From sequence record SRR31156797_635: a DNA stretch of 64,000 nt, one strand, 5' to 3'. Of this stretch, positions 5,501 through 53,397 are shown one piece after another. The notes beneath the pieces are model-generated. The model saw only the letters and a program-made list of their open reading frames with translations. It had not been told where the DNA came from and did no database searches. A program made the position numbers and the translations under genes. The first letter of the stretch is position 1; each line of letters opens with the position of its first letter.

Positions 5501-5799
5501 TTAGAGATTTTGCAAAAGATCTTCTAAATGATTCTAAGTTTTCTTCTTGGTTTTCGAAGGAATGGACGATCGTAAACGAGCGAGATATTTTAAAAGGGAA
5601 TGGTGATGTTTACAGACCCGATAGAGTTATTTACAATGATAAAGCAGCCATTGTGATCGATTATAAATTTGGTAAGAAAAAGGATAAAAAATACGAAAAA
5701 CAGGTATTAACCTATAAAAAACTAATTCAGCAACTGGGTTTCGATGAGGTTAAAGGTGTTGTACTTTATGGTAAACTATCTGAACTTGTTGAAGTATAG
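2536..5799 (+). CDS. addA: UvrD/AddA (RecB-like) helicase-nuclease
   Basis: ASAGSGKT Walker A, VTFTNKA, IDEFQD, VGDVKQSIYRWR, MTIHKSKGLEF, LLYVAQTRA, and a C-terminal PD-(D/E)xK nuclease (RPDRV...IDYKFG). Confidence 0.9.
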   Translation: MSELNIYRASAGSGKTYTLTGEFLKLVFQDPSNYKSILAVTFTNKATDEMKSRILKEIHVISSGNNSPYADALCKENNLSAAELKKRATEILNRMLHDYSRFSVTTIDSFFQKIVRSFTREIGLQMGYNIELDQGRVLNDVTDLLLQDVDDDKQLRSWLTSFAENKIHEGKTWNFKQDILVLGGEVFKEDFQNFSGTLIDKLSDKKFLSGYRKILNEIKEEFESYFAQIGEKAKNILENHALDVSDFAYGKSGVAGYITSLGTGSKFEPGARAKAAIDTPKKWYAGKASAETKKAVESAFDAGLNQLLKDAVKYYEEQGMLYRSTDKTLSYIYTLGILTDLSKKVREFSESENIFLLSDASRLLRNIIGENDSPFIYEKIGNVYKHFMIDEFQDTSSMQWDNFRPLVGNSLAEDQRSLVVGDVKQSIYRWRNGDWKLLADQLDIDFESFGVNGMSLNYNWRSTKNVIDFNNAVFALGAQILQNDYNASIPAEISESLNEEQEKIVNAYQDVYQHYPNKGEKLPGYVKSYFIEKDSERDWTEPVLEDLPLKIEELQTNGYSARDIAILVRNGKEGGLVADTLMAYRASEMAKEDVNYDVISNDSLYLKNSSAINFLVHLLQYLVNPDDKINIGFLRQEYCLYVKDNSDLSGDELYVVGKDDNFHDVFPTEFVETISELKRQPLYDLTEKLIKMFNLNKNPQDYPFLETFQDFVLGFTKSDSPDLNSFVQYWQERKDKEVISVSDDQDAIRIMTIHKSKGLEFKAVILPFCNWDLDNTRHTNILWCQPKVEGFNVLDVLPVRYASTLKDTIYYEEYFSEKLQSYIDNLNLLYVAQTRAEEVFISYSPLTGNKELRTVSDLLKFAFEKSNEFPWDFFGNKIISLTDNWNGEGNFFELGEIKGKKKDESDKREKEKMTNYPASLLDDRLKLRSHSADYFDFSEAESVETFSPVSRGNILHQLFQLIEYSDDLDKAVESLQFEGKLDSKQADEVRDFAKDLLNDSKFSSWFSKEWTIVNERDILKGNGDVYRPDRVIYNDKAAIVIDYKFGKKKDKKYEKQVLTYKKLIQQLGFDEVKGVVLYGKLSELVEV

Positions 5800-12003: not shown

Positions 12004-14820
12004 ATGAAAAGATTACTTACTTTCGGTCTGCTATGCTTTATCTGTTTCCAGATGGTAGCACAGATCCAAAAGGTACCATTAAGTCATACTGATTATGATG
12101 GATGGAAAAACCTTAAAAATCAAAAGATTTCGAACAATGGAGAATGGATTACTTATGAGGTAAATCCTCAGAAAGGAGATGGATTTCTGTATATATATCA
12201 GGTGAAAACTAAGAAATTAGATTCTATTGACAGAGCTTACGACGCCATTTTTTCTCCAGGATCAGAGGTTTTGAGTTTTAAAATTAAAACTCAGTTTGAT
12301 ACCATTCGCCAGGCAAAGGTAGATAAGTTTGAGAAAAAGGATATGCCTAAGGATTCTATCGGAATTTGGAATTTGTCGGAGAATAAGATTTTGCGTTTTG
12401 GGAACTTAAAATCATTTCAAATGCCCGAAGAAAAGGGAGATTGGATGGCTTTATTGTTAGAAATGCCCAAGGAAAAAAAGGATTCAACTGAAAGTGATTC
12501 TACCCAAATTCCTTTTAAGAAAAAGAAAGGTAAAGACAAAAAGAATGGGAAGGATAAAGTTGAAAAAGGCTTACTGGTAATTAAAAATTACATCTCTGGT
12601 AAGGAGTATCGTTATAAAGATGTAACTGAGTTTTCCTTATCTAGAAATGGGAATGCAGTTAACTTTATTCAAGTAAAAGGTGATAGTATAAAAACTGCCT
12701 TGGTGAATAAATTCTCTGGAAAATCCGAGGAATTAGAGGCGGTTTTTGAACAAGAAGGAACAGCTAAAAAAGCTTCGATTTCACCAGAAGGCGATAAATT
12801 AGGTTTTATTTTTTCTGCTGATACAGTGAAAAATAAGTGCTATTCTTTGTATTACGCAGATCTTAAACAAGCCGTAAAACCTATTGTTGATACTTTATCC
12901 AATGCAATTCAGGATAATTGGACCGTAAGTGAAAATGGCAAGATTTACTTCTCTCGTGATGGAAAGAAGATGTTCTTTGGTGTTGCTCCAAAACCAATAA
13001 ATGAAAAGAAAGATAGCTTGTTGGATGAAGAAAAATACAGAGTAGATGTTTGGAATTGGAAAGATCCTTTGTTGCAGCCACAGCAGAAACTTCAAGCTGA
13101 GAAAGAGAAAAAACGTACTTGGTTAGCTGTTTATCATACCAAAGAGAACAAAATTGTACAATTGGGAAAAGAAGATATGCCTAATGTTGAGCTGTTTGAT
13201 CATGGAAATGCTAATCTTGCATTGGGTCGATCAAGTTTGCCATATCAACAATTAACCTCATGGGACGATTGGTATTCTGATTACTATGTTGTTGATTTAG
13301 AATCGGGGAAAAAAGAATTGATTTTGGAAAAGAAAAATTCTGATGTGAGTATTTCTCCTGATCAAAAGTTTATACTTTGGTTCGAAACACAGGATAGTGT
13401 TTGGTATTCCTATCAGTTTGAAAACAAAACGAAAGTGGCTTTAACCAATAAGATAAAAGCCGAATTTTATAATGAAAAACATGATACTCCTAATGATCCT
13501 GAGCCGTATGGATTGGTTGGTTGGACAAAAGGTGATAAAAATGTGTTTATTCAGGATCGTTATGATTTTTGGATGATTGATCCTACAGGAAAAAATGCTG
13601 CCGTAAATCTAACAAATGGATTTGGTCGTAGAAATAACATTCGATTTGATTATTTGAAATTGGATGAGGATGAATTGTTTGTGGATTTAAAGAAGCCTCT
13701 ATTGTTAGCTGCCTTCCATGAATTCAATAAAAAATCGGGAACTTTTAGATTAGAAAAAGAAAGCGATCCCAAGGAAATTATTTTCAGCGATGCCAGTTAT
13801 ACAAGTCTTAAAAAGGCGAAAAATGCTGATCGTTTAATTTGGAAGCGATCAACTTTTAAAGAGTATCCAAATCTTTGGACTGGCGGAATGGATTTGTCGG
13901 ATGAAAAGCAAGTGTCAGATGCAAATCCACAGCAAAAAAACTATTTGTGGGGAGATGTTGAATTGGTAGATTGGACATCAGGTGATGGTGAGAAATTACA
14001 AGGATTACTGTACAAGCCTGAAAATTTTGATCCAAACAAAAAGTATCCAATGTTGGTTTATTTTTACGAGAGAACTTCAGATCGCATGCATCGTCATCAT
14101 GTTCCTCAACCCAACTGGTCGATTATAAATCCTTCTTATTGCGTGAGTAATGGTTATATGGTATTTATGCCAGATATTACTTATCCTAAAGTTGGATATC
14201 CAGGGGAATCAGCCTACAGTTCGATTGTTACCGGAACCTTGGCAATGATGGATCGTTACGATTTTATCGATAAAGAAAACATTGCACTACAAGGTCAAAG
14301 CTGGGGAGGATATCAAATTGCTTATTTAATCACTAGAACCGATTTGTACAAATGTGCAATGGCAGGTGCGCCAGTTACCAATATGACTTCTGCTTATGGA
14401 GGAATGCGTTGGGGAAGTGGTATGAGTCGTATGTTCCAGTATGAGAGGACTCAAAGTAGAATTGGAGGAACCTTATGGAATAGTACTTTGCAATACATCG
14501 AAAATTCACCAGTGTTCTTTGCTCCAAAAATTAAAACGCCACTATTGATTATGCATAACGATAATGATGGTGCTGTGCCTTGGTATCAGGGAATTGAATT
14601 GTTTGTGGCGATGCGTCGTTTGCAAAAACCTTGCTGGATGCTTACCTATAATGATGAAGCGCACAATTTACGCAAGCGTCCAAATCGTGTAGATTTATCG
14701 ATACGAACAATGCAGTTTTTCGATTATTATCTGAAAGGGAAACCTGCTCCTGTTTGGATGACAGATGGAATACCAGCAGTTAAAAAAGGAAAATTTGATG
14801 GTTACGATTTAAAGGAATAA
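12004..14820 (+). CDS. S9 family peptidase with beta-propeller
   Basis: Signal peptide; GQSWGG nucleophile, HNDNDGAV and EAH catalytic triad. Confidence 0.9.
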   Translation: MKRLLTFGLLCFICFQMVAQIQKVPLSHTDYDGWKNLKNQKISNNGEWITYEVNPQKGDGFLYIYQVKTKKLDSIDRAYDAIFSPGSEVLSFKIKTQFDTIRQAKVDKFEKKDMPKDSIGIWNLSENKILRFGNLKSFQMPEEKGDWMALLLEMPKEKKDSTESDSTQIPFKKKKGKDKKNGKDKVEKGLLVIKNYISGKEYRYKDVTEFSLSRNGNAVNFIQVKGDSIKTALVNKFSGKSEELEAVFEQEGTAKKASISPEGDKLGFIFSADTVKNKCYSLYYADLKQAVKPIVDTLSNAIQDNWTVSENGKIYFSRDGKKMFFGVAPKPINEKKDSLLDEEKYRVDVWNWKDPLLQPQQKLQAEKEKKRTWLAVYHTKENKIVQLGKEDMPNVELFDHGNANLALGRSSLPYQQLTSWDDWYSDYYVVDLESGKKELILEKKNSDVSISPDQKFILWFETQDSVWYSYQFENKTKVALTNKIKAEFYNEKHDTPNDPEPYGLVGWTKGDKNVFIQDRYDFWMIDPTGKNAAVNLTNGFGRRNNIRFDYLKLDEDELFVDLKKPLLLAAFHEFNKKSGTFRLEKESDPKEIIFSDASYTSLKKAKNADRLIWKRSTFKEYPNLWTGGMDLSDEKQVSDANPQQKNYLWGDVELVDWTSGDGEKLQGLLYKPENFDPNKKYPMLVYFYERTSDRMHRHHVPQPNWSIINPSYCVSNGYMVFMPDITYPKVGYPGESAYSSIVTGTLAMMDRYDFIDKENIALQGQSWGGYQIAYLITRTDLYKCAMAGAPVTNMTSAYGGMRWGSGMSRMFQYERTQSRIGGTLWNSTLQYIENSPVFFAPKIKTPLLIMHNDNDGAVPWYQGIELFVAMRRLQKPCWMLTYNDEAHNLRKRPNRVDLSIRTMQFFDYYLKGKPAPVWMTDGIPAVKKGKFDGYDLKE

Positions 14821-14871
14821 TACTGATTCATTTGGAATTTAAATGATATAATACCATTATAAAAAGTATAG

Positions 14872-14899
14872 AATGCGTCCCAAGTGGGACGCATTTTTT
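14872..14899 (+). terminator. Rho-independent terminator
   Basis: AATGCGTCCCA-AG-TGGGACGCATT followed by a T-run. Confidence 0.85.
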
Positions 14900-14967
14900 A
14901 TTTACAATAATGTTTTGACCTGGAGATCAAAAGTTTTAATTGATCAAACGCTTTTTATAGGTCAAAT

Positions 14968-15135
14968 TATGCTTCTATTCTCGATTTAACCACATTTTTT
15001 AATTAGCCATATGCTTCGAGGCTTGCAAAAGGTGTATCAACTCTTGATTTTGGTGTATCGAAGCAGGTATGAGCTTCTTCAACTCTCGAAATAGACGCAC
15101 CGAAGCATTATAAAGGTGCTTGTATTCATGGATTT
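14968..15135. repeat. Degenerate tandem array with 21-bp period
   Basis: Units at 14968, 15010, 15031, 15052, 15073, 15094 and 15115 align with invariant A10 and C13 (e.g. GGTGTATCAACTCTTGATTTT / GGTGTATCGAAGCAGGTATGA). Confidence 0.6.
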
Positions 15136-15237
15136 ATTGAGTAGAAGTTTTATTTTATCGCTTTAAGCTACCAGTTTACCTATTGGAGTAATTCTTTTTA
15201 TAAAAAAATGAGTGTGTTAATACAGAAGAATGTATGC

Positions 15238-15375
15238 AAACAAAACCCTTCATTTCCGATAAATGAAGGGTTTTTGAATCTTAATTGTTAGTTAAGAGTG
15301 TTGTGTGTTTGTTGTTGTGTTGCTTCTGGTTAGGTTTAACCAATATTATTTAGTGTTGTTGTTTTCCGTATTATT
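15238..15375 (-). ncRNA. Candidate CA-rich small RNA (about 135 nt) divergent from Lrp/AsnC
   Basis: Minus-strand -7-like TTACTTTG (15389-15382), CAACA-rich body without ATG, and a 14-bp terminator hairpin at 15242-15274. Confidence 0.5.
15242..15274 (-). terminator. Strong hairpin terminator (T-runs on both strands)
   Basis: AAAACCCTTCATTT-CCGAT-AAATGAAGGGTTTT. Confidence 0.85.
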
Positions 15376-15409
15376 TGCTAGCAAAGTAAACACCTTTCCA
15401 AGATAATTC

Positions 15410-15475
15410 ATACAGTTTCTGTATAAATAAGTAAATATTACCGATATTGCTACGTCTTAAAGTGAAAATCACTTT
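15410..15475. promoter_or_regulatory. Three palindromes with 3-nt A/T centres; candidate Lrp/AsnC operators
   Basis: ATACAG-TTT-CTGTAT (centre 15417), GTAA-ATA-TTAC (15436), AAAGTGA-AAA-TCACTTT (15467). Confidence 0.5.
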
Positions 15476-15518: not shown

Positions 15519-15980
15519 ATGGAAAGTTTAGATCAAACGGATAAAACTATTTTAAGAATATTGCAGAATGATTCAAAGAAAACTGCGAAAGAGATAGCTG
15601 CAATGTTGAACATTACAGTTTCTCCGGTATATGAGAGAATTCGAAGATTGGAAAATCAGGGATTTATTAAAAAATATGTAGCCATTCTAGATAAAAAAAG
15701 AATAGAAAGAAGCGTTACAGCCATCTGCCAGGTTTCCATGCGATATCATGATGAGAAATTTATTGACGAGTTTGAAAAACAAGTTCAGGATCTAAAAGAA
15801 GTTCAGGAATGTTATCATATGGCTGGGCAAGTTGATTTTATTCTTAAAATTCATGTGAGAAGTCTGGAAGAGTATCATGAGTTTGTACGTTTTAAACTAT
15901 CTAAGATTAATAATATCGGAGTTTTGAATAGTACTTTTGTTATTAAAGAAATAAAACATAGTTCCGAATATTACATTTAG
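15519..15980 (+). CDS. Lrp/AsnC family transcriptional regulator
   Basis: LD.TDK.IL..LQ HTH with ERIRRLE..G.I; RAM domain ECYHMAGQVDFILK. Confidence 0.93.
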   Translation: MESLDQTDKTILRILQNDSKKTAKEIAAMLNITVSPVYERIRRLENQGFIKKYVAILDKKRIERSVTAICQVSMRYHDEKFIDEFEKQVQDLKEVQECYHMAGQVDFILKIHVRSLEEYHEFVRFKLSKINNIGVLNSTFVIKEIKHSSEYYI

Positions 15981-52320: not shown

Positions 52321-53397
52321 ATGTATCATTTTTACTCCATATCATTAAAAGAATTGGAGAGCATAAATTACAAGGCAAGTTTTCCAAGTAACCAATACAA
52401 ATGGATTTTCGATTGGTATTCCGTTTTTGAAAATGTTGAAAACAATACGATTGGATTTAAAAAGAAACCATTAATAATTGCAGCCTACGAAGGAGAGGAA
52501 TTAGTTGCAATCATACCTCTGATAAAATTGATACGGAAATATTGCAAATGTATAAAGTTGGAATTTGTTGAGTTTTTAGGTCAGCAATGGTCTTGTATTG
52601 GTCACGATCTTATAATCATGAAAGAACTTGACTCTGACTTTATTGACGAGTTATTACGATGGATTAAAAAAAAGATCAACTATCATTTTATCTTTTTTAA
52701 ATATGTGCCTAAAACATCTATTCTCAATCAGAAGTTTAAAATGTATCGGTATTCAGGCGCTCCTGTAATTCCAGTTGCTGATTTTGATTCTTATGAAGAT
52801 TTTTCGCTTAATGTATATGCAAAAAAGTTCAGAAAGAAACTAAGCAGAACAATTCGGAAAATTGAAAGAGATGGTTTCAATTTGAAATTATCTTACGAAG
52901 AAATTGATGACACCAATTTTAAGATCATAAAAGAAATTGCAAAATCGAAAGAAATCGATGGCAAGAATTATGTGTATGGCGATAAAAATAAAGAGAACTT
53001 TCATTTGAAATTGTACGATAACTTTCCCTCCCATGTACTGTTTGCAAAATTTAACGAAACGCCTGTAGCTTATGTCGCAAACATAGAGTGTGATGATGTT
53101 CGCATTGCCGTTGATTGTGCTTTCGATCGTGATTTTAGAAGTTATGGTGTTGGTGTTCAGTGTATGGATTGTAACATTCGAAATAGTTTTAAAGTGGGTA
53201 AAAAGAAATTCTCCTTTGGGGTTGGTTTAGATGCTTACAAATTTCAGTTTACGGATAGGGCAGCTCCTTTCTATATGTGTTTCGATTATCGATACCGTTT
53301 AAAATCCTTATTGGCTTTGCCTTTTTTGTATTATAAAGTTGTAAAAACGAATCATCAGGTTTCGAAACAATTTAATGAGATTCAGGAATATGTTTAG
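52321..53397 (+). CDS. GNAT (CelD/BcsL-like) acyltransferase, copy 2
   Basis: Paralog of 51101 (EFLGQQWS, YRY.GAP, F.MCFD...R.KSLLALP). Confidence 0.72.
   Translation: MYHFYSISLKELESINYKASFPSNQYKWIFDWYSVFENVENNTIGFKKKPLIIAAYEGEELVAIIPLIKLIRKYCKCIKLEFVEFLGQQWSCIGHDLIIMKELDSDFIDELLRWIKKKINYHFIFFKYVPKTSILNQKFKMYRYSGAPVIPVADFDSYEDFSLNVYAKKFRKKLSRTIRKIERDGFNLKLSYEEIDDTNFKIIKEIAKSKEIDGKNYVYGDKNKENFHLKLYDNFPSHVLFAKFNETPVAYVANIECDDVRIAVDCAFDRDFRSYGVGVQCMDCNIRNSFKVGKKKFSFGVGLDAYKFQFTDRAAPFYMCFDYRYRLKSLLALPFLYYKVVKTNHQVSKQFNEIQEYV

Follow-up and report, generated by a model that had tools for sequence, protein, structure and literature searches.

Here we analysed a stretch of DNA of 64,000 nucleotides (nt) from sequence record SRR31156797_635 (the window) and specifically the CA-rich unit of about 140 nt that faces, on the minus strand, a regulator gene of the lrp/asnC family. 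Comparison with orthologous loci indicates that this unit almost certainly arose by deletion of the coding sequence of an SDR-type L-threonine 3-dehydrogenase gene (tdh). That the unit is now a non-coding RNA gene made from the ends of tdh, acting as an Lrp-linked sponge for a GU-rich small RNA (sRNA), is a reading on which we consider the case evenly balanced.

The regulator gene (15519-15980, plus strand) is an open reading frame (ORF) of 153 amino acids that is divergent from the CA RNA unit, and its product matches the NCBIfam Lrp model with E 2.5e-26 and 92 bits, which, being below the equivalog cut-off of 233 bits, places it in the Lrp family only. Orthologues of this protein are 78-99% identical across 80 loci, and the closest relative in our genome collection is an uncultured Marinifilum sp. 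(Lrp identity 99%), followed by Marinifilum, Ancylomarina and Labilibaculum, all of them Marinifilaceae. In 64 of the 80 loci, comprising all 60 outside the Marinifilaceae and four of Labilibaculum, lrp is divergent from tdh, and we take this arrangement to be the ancestral one because of that distribution; the other 16 are without tdh. All Marinifilaceae loci have the same promoter and first bases (…TTTACTTTGCTAGCAAATAATACGG) upstream of lrp. In the four Labilibaculum loci (L012, L013, L014 and L018) this promoter precedes an ORF of 324 amino acids encoding the SDR-type L-threonine 3-dehydrogenase, as its match to PDB 2yy7 indicates (E 1.6e-106); it also matches 18 solved L-threonine dehydrogenase sequences with E <= 2.5e-65, three of which were deposited under epimerase-type names. 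The tdh coding sequence is gone in Marinifilum, to which the window belongs, in Ancylomarina and in some Labilibaculum. An earlier note on this DNA, made from its letters, had proposed that the divergent partner of the regulator is a CA-rich small RNA rather than an enzyme gene, and in this genome the partner is indeed a conserved non-coding unit.

Read along the minus strand, the unit begins with a -7-like box of the Bacteroidota type (TTACTTTG, 15389-15382), 19 nt upstream of which lies a possible -33-like TATG (15412-15409). This promoter region (15382-15419) appears to be inherited from tdh, the same box and flanks standing before the tdh ATG in the four tdh-bearing Labilibaculum loci, and the Bacteroidota promoter consensus would place the start of transcription at about 15378-15374. 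Behind the box stands a relic of the first 16 or so nt of the tdh 5' leader (CTAGCAAATAATACGG, 15366-15381), recognised by a two-piece alignment to tdh-bearing loci in which the 5' part ends at leader nt 16, and then CA block 1 (AAAACAACAACAC, 15353-15365), which aligns to the ...KQ(L/I)... codons near the tdh C-terminus. The last tdh codons survive as the relic AAT ATT GGT TAA (N I G stop; 15336-15347), which aligns with the end of Labilibaculum tdh, where the ORF ends in ...ELENIG* (GAAAATATAGGTTAA). Right after that stop codon the four Labilibaculum loci continue with AAAACAACAACAAACAC…, the CA block, and then a terminator, and this 3' untranslated region (3'UTR) aligns with the CA RNA of the window; over a 24-nt stretch at the C-terminal relic, 18 of 24 positions match L012 by our own count. 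Hairpin 1 (TGGTTA / AACC / TAACCA, 15327-15342), seen in the minimum free energy (MFE) fold, spans the former stop codon of tdh. It is followed by CA block 2 (GCAACACAACAACAAACACACAACAC, 15298-15323), by its invariant alignment columns the most conserved part across genera, and by hairpin 2 (TCTTAA / CTAACAA / TTAAGA, 15279-15297), which the folds predict and which is specific to Marinifilum and Ancylomarina; the Ancylomarina version is CTAA/TTAG, one base pair (bp) shorter on both arms. The unit closes with an intrinsic terminator predicted by folding (15236-15274), made of a 14-bp stem (15274-15261 with 15255-15242), the loop ATCGG and a U-rich tail (TTTTGTTTGC) that reaches to about 15236. 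The -7-like box, the A/C-biased body, the hairpin and the 14-bp terminator are thus all where the earlier note had placed them; hairpin 2 is an addition to that description, and the remark that the unit contains no ATG is not strictly true, as the 3' arm of the terminator contains one (15253-15251).

The body of the unit (15365-15280, minus strand) is 78% A+C (46 A, 21 C, 5 G and 14 T), a count matched by just 10 of the 127,830 segments of 86 nt on both strands of the 64 kb, all 10 of them located here; the bias is exceptional and not a product of chance. The predicted fold of the CA RNA is more stable than those of 200 out of 200 dinucleotide-preserving shuffles (z = -5.3). In form the terminator is bidirectional, as the plus strand has a T-run too, and the structure at 15274-15242 was not listed by a consensus terminator scan.

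In the window the junction connects leader nt 16, counted from the -7 box, with the position 31 nt upstream of the end of the stop codon, so that the tdh promoter, about 16 nt of the start of the leader, the last 10 or so codons, the CA-rich 3'UTR and the terminator remain. Junctions of the other loci were mapped by the same two-piece alignment and fall into four types, their positions being approximate in such low-complexity sequence. In Marinifilum, L015 and L017 the 5' part ends at leader nt 16-17 and the 3' part starts 28-36 nt before the stop end; in L016 and L019 the corresponding positions are leader nt 14-15 and 53-56 nt before the stop end; in Ancylomarina L011 the 5' part extends to ATG + 8 and the 3' part starts at 57 nt; and in L021 they are ATG + 10 and 17 nt. 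A tree of the Lrp protein and of the neighbouring peptidase nests L016 and L019 within the tdh-bearing Labilibaculum clade (Shimodaira-Hasegawa-like approximate likelihood ratio test, SH-aLRT, 100 and 95) and places L015 and L108 as sister to that clade (SH-aLRT 94). The approximately unbiased (AU) test rejects a tree uniting all 19 RNA-only rows (p = 6e-6), and unordered parsimony needs three changes. The tdh coding sequence was, by these comparisons, lost more than once, and on the assumption that regain of a deleted gene is impossible we infer at least four losses from the tree and the junctions together. Among the lineages keeping lrp, every loss left promoter, CA block and terminator in place.

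A copy of the SDR-type tdh elsewhere in the genome was not found in the four RNA-only genomes searched, where the best matches were partial and 24-34% identical. The Zn-dependent (MDR-type) Tdh and Kbl were found above curated cut-offs in all five genomes searched (the four RNA-only ones and one with tdh), which makes the loss of the SDR-type enzyme plausible; by this gene content the latter appears dispensable in the relatives. The CA element was not found in the tdh 3'UTRs of 59 non-Marinifilaceae loci scanned. The Zn-type tdh is on the same contig as the lrp/CA-RNA locus, 48-64 kb from it, in all five genomes (G002-G005 and G059); it does not occur within the 64-kb window, and G059 carries both types.

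We then consider whether the remains of tdh have been maintained. The comparison is between the window and 13 other RNA-only species, the near-identical L001 being set aside. At 4-fold degenerate sites of lrp the identity is 21-43%, that is, these sites are saturated; in the CA RNA region it is 63-80%; and in the 150 nt beyond the terminator it is 46-53%, the level that global alignment gives for unrelated sequence. Mean identities to the window across the 10 other Marinifilum species rank the segments from hairpin 2, the most conserved within the genus (0.94), through the promoter at 15382-15419 (0.73), CA block 1 (0.71), the terminator (0.64) and CA block 2 with its indels (0.52) to hairpin 1 (0.34) and the downstream flank (0.33). 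MFE folding nevertheless puts hairpin 1 at the corresponding position in all 12 Marinifilum sequences and in L015 and L108, its sequence varying while pairing is kept: between Marinifilum clades, comparison by eye finds a U-A pair changed to C-G and a G-C pair to G-U and on to A-U. The tdh-bearing relatives have only a version of 3-4 bp. The alignment fold of the terminator has 10 predicted pairs, four of them with compensatory double changes. A covariance model of the core, built from both the RNA-only and the tdh-bearing forms, gives a strong match, and no more than one, in 22 of 96 genomes of the family; all 22 are single-copy and syntenic, in the context lrp-[tdh]-RNA-peptidase; inspection adds one divergent copy (G050/L021), which brings the total to 23. 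Two further matches of the model were discarded as spurious, one at 5644-5767 of the window, inside an ORF of 1087 amino acids, and the other (L109) at the 3' end of an unrelated gene. The unit is probably a functional RNA of some kind.

One objection to this view is that the unit is a decaying leftover of the tdh ends, its promoter being kept for its overlap with the control of lrp, its terminator for protection against antisense transcription into the peptidase gene, and its CA block for nothing. The earlier note had named, among the outcomes fatal to its proposal, a unit that is just the leader of a deleted gene, and the orthologous loci do prove that the unit is what remains of one, the SDR-type tdh. 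It is not just a relic, however: in the tdh-bearing relatives the CA block is already conserved as part of the 3'UTR, and it has stayed constrained after the deletion. The notion of decay draws further strength from the RNA libraries, which give no more than a weak hint of transcription, and from four genomes that bear the GU-rich sRNA with no trace of the entire lrp-tdh locus (lrp and SDR-tdh orthologues were both undetectable in the four tested family members having the sRNA without the CA RNA), which would make the element dispensable in some lineages. It fails to account for the CA blocks and hairpin 2, which lie outside promoter and terminator and are far better conserved than the saturated synonymous sites or the flank, for the compensatory changes in hairpin 1 after the deletion, and for the survival of the CA block through every type of deletion in the lineages that keep lrp. 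Deletional bias in bacteria removes neutral sequence, and a neutral stretch of 100 nt should have been lost while the 4-fold sites became saturated. We regard mere decay as unlikely.

The candidate partner of the CA RNA, in the reading of it as a sponge, is a conserved intergenic element which, read on the other strand, is an sRNA candidate of about 88 nt, with a -7-like box upstream, a 5' stem-loop, a single-stranded tract of 27 nt (UUAGUGUUUGUUGUUUAAGUAUUUUGU) and an intrinsic terminator. Copies lie at L227:51-139 (-), L210:51-139 (-), L219:52-139 (-), L220:874-958 (+) and L232:49-139 (-), with 30 copies in L237-L266. A search with its model gave a single strong copy in each of 34 out of 96 Marinifilaceae genomes, and a sample of 150 other genomes of the order gave none. 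Across 30 aligned copies (22 of them distinct) the single-stranded tract does not vary, and the terminator covaries: 98.2% of the pair cells are paired, and the cells with both sides changed number 23, compared with 7.0 in shuffles, none of 500 shuffles reaching the observed value. The sRNA has no match in Rfam, and a search for GcvB (RF00022) gave no match at E <= 1 in L210, L219 and L227, so that its resemblance to GcvB, drawn by analogy, may be functional only. The genes next to it are YccF-like and flippase-like, with no regulator among them. The GU-rich sRNA is present in each of the 23 genomes that carry the CA element, 11 genomes have the sRNA alone, and none of the 62 genomes without the sRNA has the CA element. 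Neither RNA has been described before, as far as the literature that we found goes: no description of either came up in the literature on sRNAs of Bacteroidota or Marinifilum, on tdh-Lrp pairs and on GcvB, searched by title only and with supplements excluded.

The seed core of the GU-rich sRNA (GUGUUUGUUGUU) is the perfect complement of the 12-mer AACAACAAACAC in CA block 2 (15316-15305, minus strand), and a second site complementary to the seed is AAACAACAA in CA block 1 (15364-15356). At least 11 contiguous nt are complementary in 22 of 23 CA RNAs or 3'UTRs and nine in the remaining one; in one Marinifilum clade the main site is shifted to block 1, with pairing kept through a G-U pair. The best predicted duplex between the two RNAs has an energy of -20.4 kcal/mol and uses the leader and CA block 1, and the predicted unpaired probabilities are 0.96 for the site in block 1 and 0.98 for the 12-mer in block 2. 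The earlier note had guessed at a sponge either for a GU-rich RNA or for a CAACA-binding protein, and the former part gains from this complementary core of 12 nt and from the presence of an sRNA candidate in every relative that bears the CA element.

The CA motif recurs in leaders of genes of amino-acid metabolism. In the 40 nt before the starts of Zn-type tdh and kbl of five genomes there are 3-8 matches to the CA pentamer, and at least four in nine of the 10 leaders, a number reached in only six of 270 ORFs from a 400-kb sample of genome G003, chosen to include both genes, and in one of the 47 ORFs of the window. Among 800,000 nt searched, the best match to the 15-nt core is located 10 nt upstream of a Zn-type tdh. 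Exact matches to AACAACAAACAC in the five genomes number 35, of which two are the CA element and five, one per genome, the GU-rich sRNA locus. Outside both RNA genes, 12 of the 28 matches precede an ORF start by no more than 42 nt, and the genes behind them are kbl (twice), Zn-type tdh, Peptidase_C69 (twice), a thiamine pyrophosphate (TPP) enzyme (twice), a Gate-domain transporter (twice), an aminotransferase (twice) and SDH_alpha. Three more lie 87-122 nt upstream of an ORF start, before a Crp-type regulator gene and two genes of 2-oxoacid:ferredoxin oxidoreductase (POR), and 13 lie elsewhere. For the reversed 12-mer as a control, two of 27 matches are within 42 nt of a start, against the 12 of 28 (Fisher p = 0.0027). 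Leaders with the CA motif at 0-42 nt upstream of the start thus comprise those of Zn-type tdh (L182-L186), kbl (L177-L181), the C69 peptidase (L229, L235), the aminotransferase (L218, L222), the TPP enzyme (L216, L223), the transporter (L217, L224) and SDH_alpha (L207). When the 270 initiation regions of the G003 sample were ranked by predicted pairing with the seed, the C69 peptidase came first, Zn-type tdh fifth and kbl seventh; none of the 47 initiation regions of the window pairs strongly with it (best -14.8, mean -9.9). About 120 nt upstream of the POR gamma-subunit gene, L213 (G005) and L226 (G059) carry a further CA-rich tract (…CACAACACACAACAACAAACAC…) followed by a hairpin, a potential additional site for the GU-rich RNA to bind or a decoy for it.

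The CA-rich leaders bear in addition on the possibility that the CA RNA is itself the trans-acting regulator, either through seeds in its CA blocks that pair with GU-rich sites of mRNAs, such as hydrophobic signal-peptide codons, or by binding a CA-binding protein or the 30S subunit and S1, in the manner of CrcZ. Leaders of amino-acid genes do resemble the CA RNA, some GU-rich complements do lie in signal-peptide codons (L124/L138), and a single-stranded stretch followed by a terminator is the architecture of Bacteroides sRNAs (PMC11697453). A conserved mRNA partner did not emerge, however: exact complements of the 11-mer number 68 in five genomes, against 47 for the control, with no conserved target in a 5' region, and the only cluster that spans three genomes is inside coding sequence. 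Pairing of the CA RNA itself with the leaders of kbl or Zn-type tdh was inconsistent (z from -2.4 to +1.7) and was rejected. As for proteins, Hfq (PF17209) was found in none of five Marinifilaceae genomes, five control genomes being positive, and RRM_1 proteins were likewise not found in any of the five, a Bacteroides control being positive. Roles of the CA RNA as an Hfq sponge or as a ligand of RbpB were ruled out on these grounds, and the protein part of the sponge guess of the earlier note is unlikely for both families. The one strongly conserved complementary partner that was found is the GU-rich sRNA, and we hold a trans-acting role of this kind to be improbable.

Far less probable still is that the C-rich, G-poor tract, without function in trans, serves as a loading site for Rho or was a stability determinant in the 3'UTR of the former tdh mRNA. 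Rho-utilisation sites are G-poor, unstructured and C-containing, a description that fits the RNA before the terminator, and the tract is a 3'UTR in the tdh-bearing relatives; Rho prefers YC dinucleotides, however, of which the tract has almost none, the strong intrinsic terminator after it makes Rho unnecessary, and the cis element of a deleted gene, with nothing left to act on, is still conserved. Finally, the leader peptide or attenuator suggested by the earlier note, a TTG-initiated ORF of 20 amino acids (15343-15281) that exists and does translate as described there, can be set aside almost entirely, as it is absent from nine of the 10 other Marinifilum sequences (L001 is the exception) and, with a similar one in L015, is confined to the window and L001 among 21 alignment rows, as it starts inside hairpin 1, as block lengths differ among species by non-multiples of three, and as no gene follows it on the minus strand.

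We now return to the sponge. To the homology, deletion, constraint and complementarity described above, this reading adds transcription of the CA RNA, control by Lrp, pairing in vivo and a direction of effect, all of which would run as follows. Deletion of tdh would have fused an Lrp-linked promoter and about 16 nt of leader to the last codons, the CA-rich 3'UTR and the terminator, and the CA RNA would be transcribed from that inherited promoter. Its two single-stranded CA blocks, displayed between stabilising hairpins, would pair with the invariant single-stranded region of 27 nt in the GU-rich sRNA. The latter would repress kbl, Zn-type tdh, the C69 peptidase, the aminotransferase and other CA-leader mRNAs at their initiation regions, which we propose because those genes have the CA 12-mer shortly before their start codons, and the CA RNA as a decoy would titrate it and so relieve the repression of amino-acid genes. 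Such a mechanism would explain the survival of the CA block through each deletion in lrp-keeping lineages and would keep the CA RNA in the regulon of its parental gene, as has been proposed for OxyS (PMC8825220). In our judgement the mechanism has at most an even chance of being right, and perhaps slightly less. The wider claim, that a part of the Hfq-less Marinifilaceae runs a GcvB/SroC-like circuit from unrelated parts, in which the 3'UTR of SDR-type tdh is the sponge and selection for that sponge explains at least four deletions of the redundant coding sequence sparing promoter and 3'UTR, each of which made a free-standing, Lrp-linked anti-sRNA gene out of an enzyme gene, is advanced tentatively, as we think it somewhat more apt to be wrong than right.

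Several observations weigh against the reading as a sponge. The pairing energies are moderate in comparison with mononucleotide shuffles (z from -1.5 to -3.3, with 0-9 of 100 shuffles as low), a control that is conservative because selection may have acted on the composition as such. Genome-wide the 12-mer shows no over-representation, with its 35 matches against 27 for the control, and the link to the kbl and tdh leaders was noticed post hoc, during a failed search for pairing. The co-occurrence of the two RNAs tracks phylogeny and is not independent evidence; the 11 genomes without the CA RNA mean that the GU-rich sRNA does not need a sponge in order to exist; and this sRNA is absent from the 64-kb window, its presence in the organism being deduced from the 10 of 10 other Marinifilum genomes that have it. 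Conservation of the promoter, the only sign of control by Lrp, could stem from the regulation of lrp itself. Marinifilum, L015/L108 and L017, although apart in the tree, have a near-identical junction that the reading does not account for and that may reflect either a deletion hot spot or common descent. In one RNA library from marine sediment (run X16), a contig of 153 nt covers 15212-15361, and nothing else is covered between 14700 and 15877; this is a weak hint of transcription, with a depth of 3.8, the strand not resolved and carry-over of DNA possible, and the contig runs 24 nt past the terminator and does not reach the predicted start. In runs X17 and X18 only the start of lrp is covered and X20 gives nothing, the uncovered parts being uninformative.

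Three known systems resemble parts of the one proposed here, and a fourth is its closest parallel in origin. GcvB is a GU-rich sRNA of an amino-acid regulon that targets C/A-rich sites, and the predicted targets of our GU-rich sRNA are, similarly, CA-rich initiation regions of amino-acid genes. In Pseudomonas, CrcZ and CrcY are decoy RNAs with CA motifs that sequester Hfq/Crc, and they share with the CA RNA the repeated A/C-rich single-stranded motifs mimicking initiation regions of catabolic mRNAs; the difference is that Hfq was not found in the five genomes examined and that the candidate binder of the CA RNA is an RNA, not a protein. SroC is an mRNA-derived sponge of GcvB (Miyakoshi et al. 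2015, PMC4474525), and it too is a fragment of an amino-acid-related mRNA with sites complementary to the seed of a GU-rich sRNA. The pair found here differs in having no sequence or Rfam relationship to SroC and GcvB, in the lack of Hfq and in being wholly predicted, and the CA RNA differs further from SroC in that its parental coding sequence is gone, leaving a free-standing gene with an inherited promoter. GibS and FopS, Bacteroides sRNAs that associate with RbpB, an RRM-1 protein (Ruttiger et al. 2025, PMC11697453), are like the CA RNA sRNAs of Bacteroidota in which a single-stranded seed is followed by an intrinsic terminator; unlike them, the CA RNA occurs where RRM_1 was not found in five of five genomes, and it has no Rfam match.

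The parallel in origin is OxyS, an sRNA whose source in evolution was the 3' end of a peroxidase mRNA, the peroxidase gene being divergent from oxyR (Krieger et al. 2022, PMC8825220). There too, most relatives have an enzyme gene opposite the regulator, a single clade has an sRNA gene in that position, and homology ties the sRNA to the final codons, the 3'UTR and the terminator of the enzyme gene; the regulator-linked promoter would be inherited, keeping the sRNA in the parental regulon. The CA RNA differs in belonging to another phylum, without Hfq, in a much clearer homology with intact and deleted forms in one genus and several losses, and in a 3'UTR element that was a conserved block before the deletion. 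OxyS has been established by experiment, whereas expression and Lrp regulation of the CA RNA are predicted only. How new bacterial sRNAs originate and enter a regulon is an open question for which OxyS is the main worked example, and the CA RNA locus would be a second and cleaner case, with both forms in one genus, junctions readable down to the former stop codon and repeated conversion. If the CA RNA is a sponge, this would be the first circuit of an amino-acid-regulon sRNA and an anti-sRNA described in Bacteroidota, set in organisms without Hfq and here also without RRM-1 proteins, and its parts would be concrete and testable: two short RNAs, a pairing core of 12 nt and candidate target leaders. 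Culturable relatives are Marinifilum fragile, M. flexuosum, Labilibaculum filiforme, which has tdh, and L. manganireducens, which does not.

A search of Rfam 15 at the locus with a permissive threshold, a check that the earlier note had suggested, returned no family at or above its gathering threshold; the best overlapping match, SpF11_sRNA, covers the terminator alone (26.4 bits against a threshold of 54, E 0.4). Sub-threshold matches to Phe_leader and atoC at 14842-14916 (plus strand) were rejected, being the strong terminator hairpin (14870-14897) of the peptidase gene. That gene (12004-14820), serine-peptidase-like and 938 amino acids long, lies downstream of the CA RNA and is convergent with it, with this terminator of its own. 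Between the two terminators extends an ORF-less spacer of about 340 nt (14898-15235), common to L001 only, which contains repeated GGTGTATC(A/G)A. In other Marinifilum species (L004-L010) the corresponding spacer just past the RNA terminator (for example about 3430-3720 of L004, minus strand) holds tandem palindromes resembling repetitive extragenic palindromes (...TTCCCCAAGCTGGGGAAGG...), the number of which varies by species. The second most A+C-rich stretch of 86 nt in the window is at 53087-53172 on the minus strand, with 64 of its 86 positions A or C and 27 of them C.

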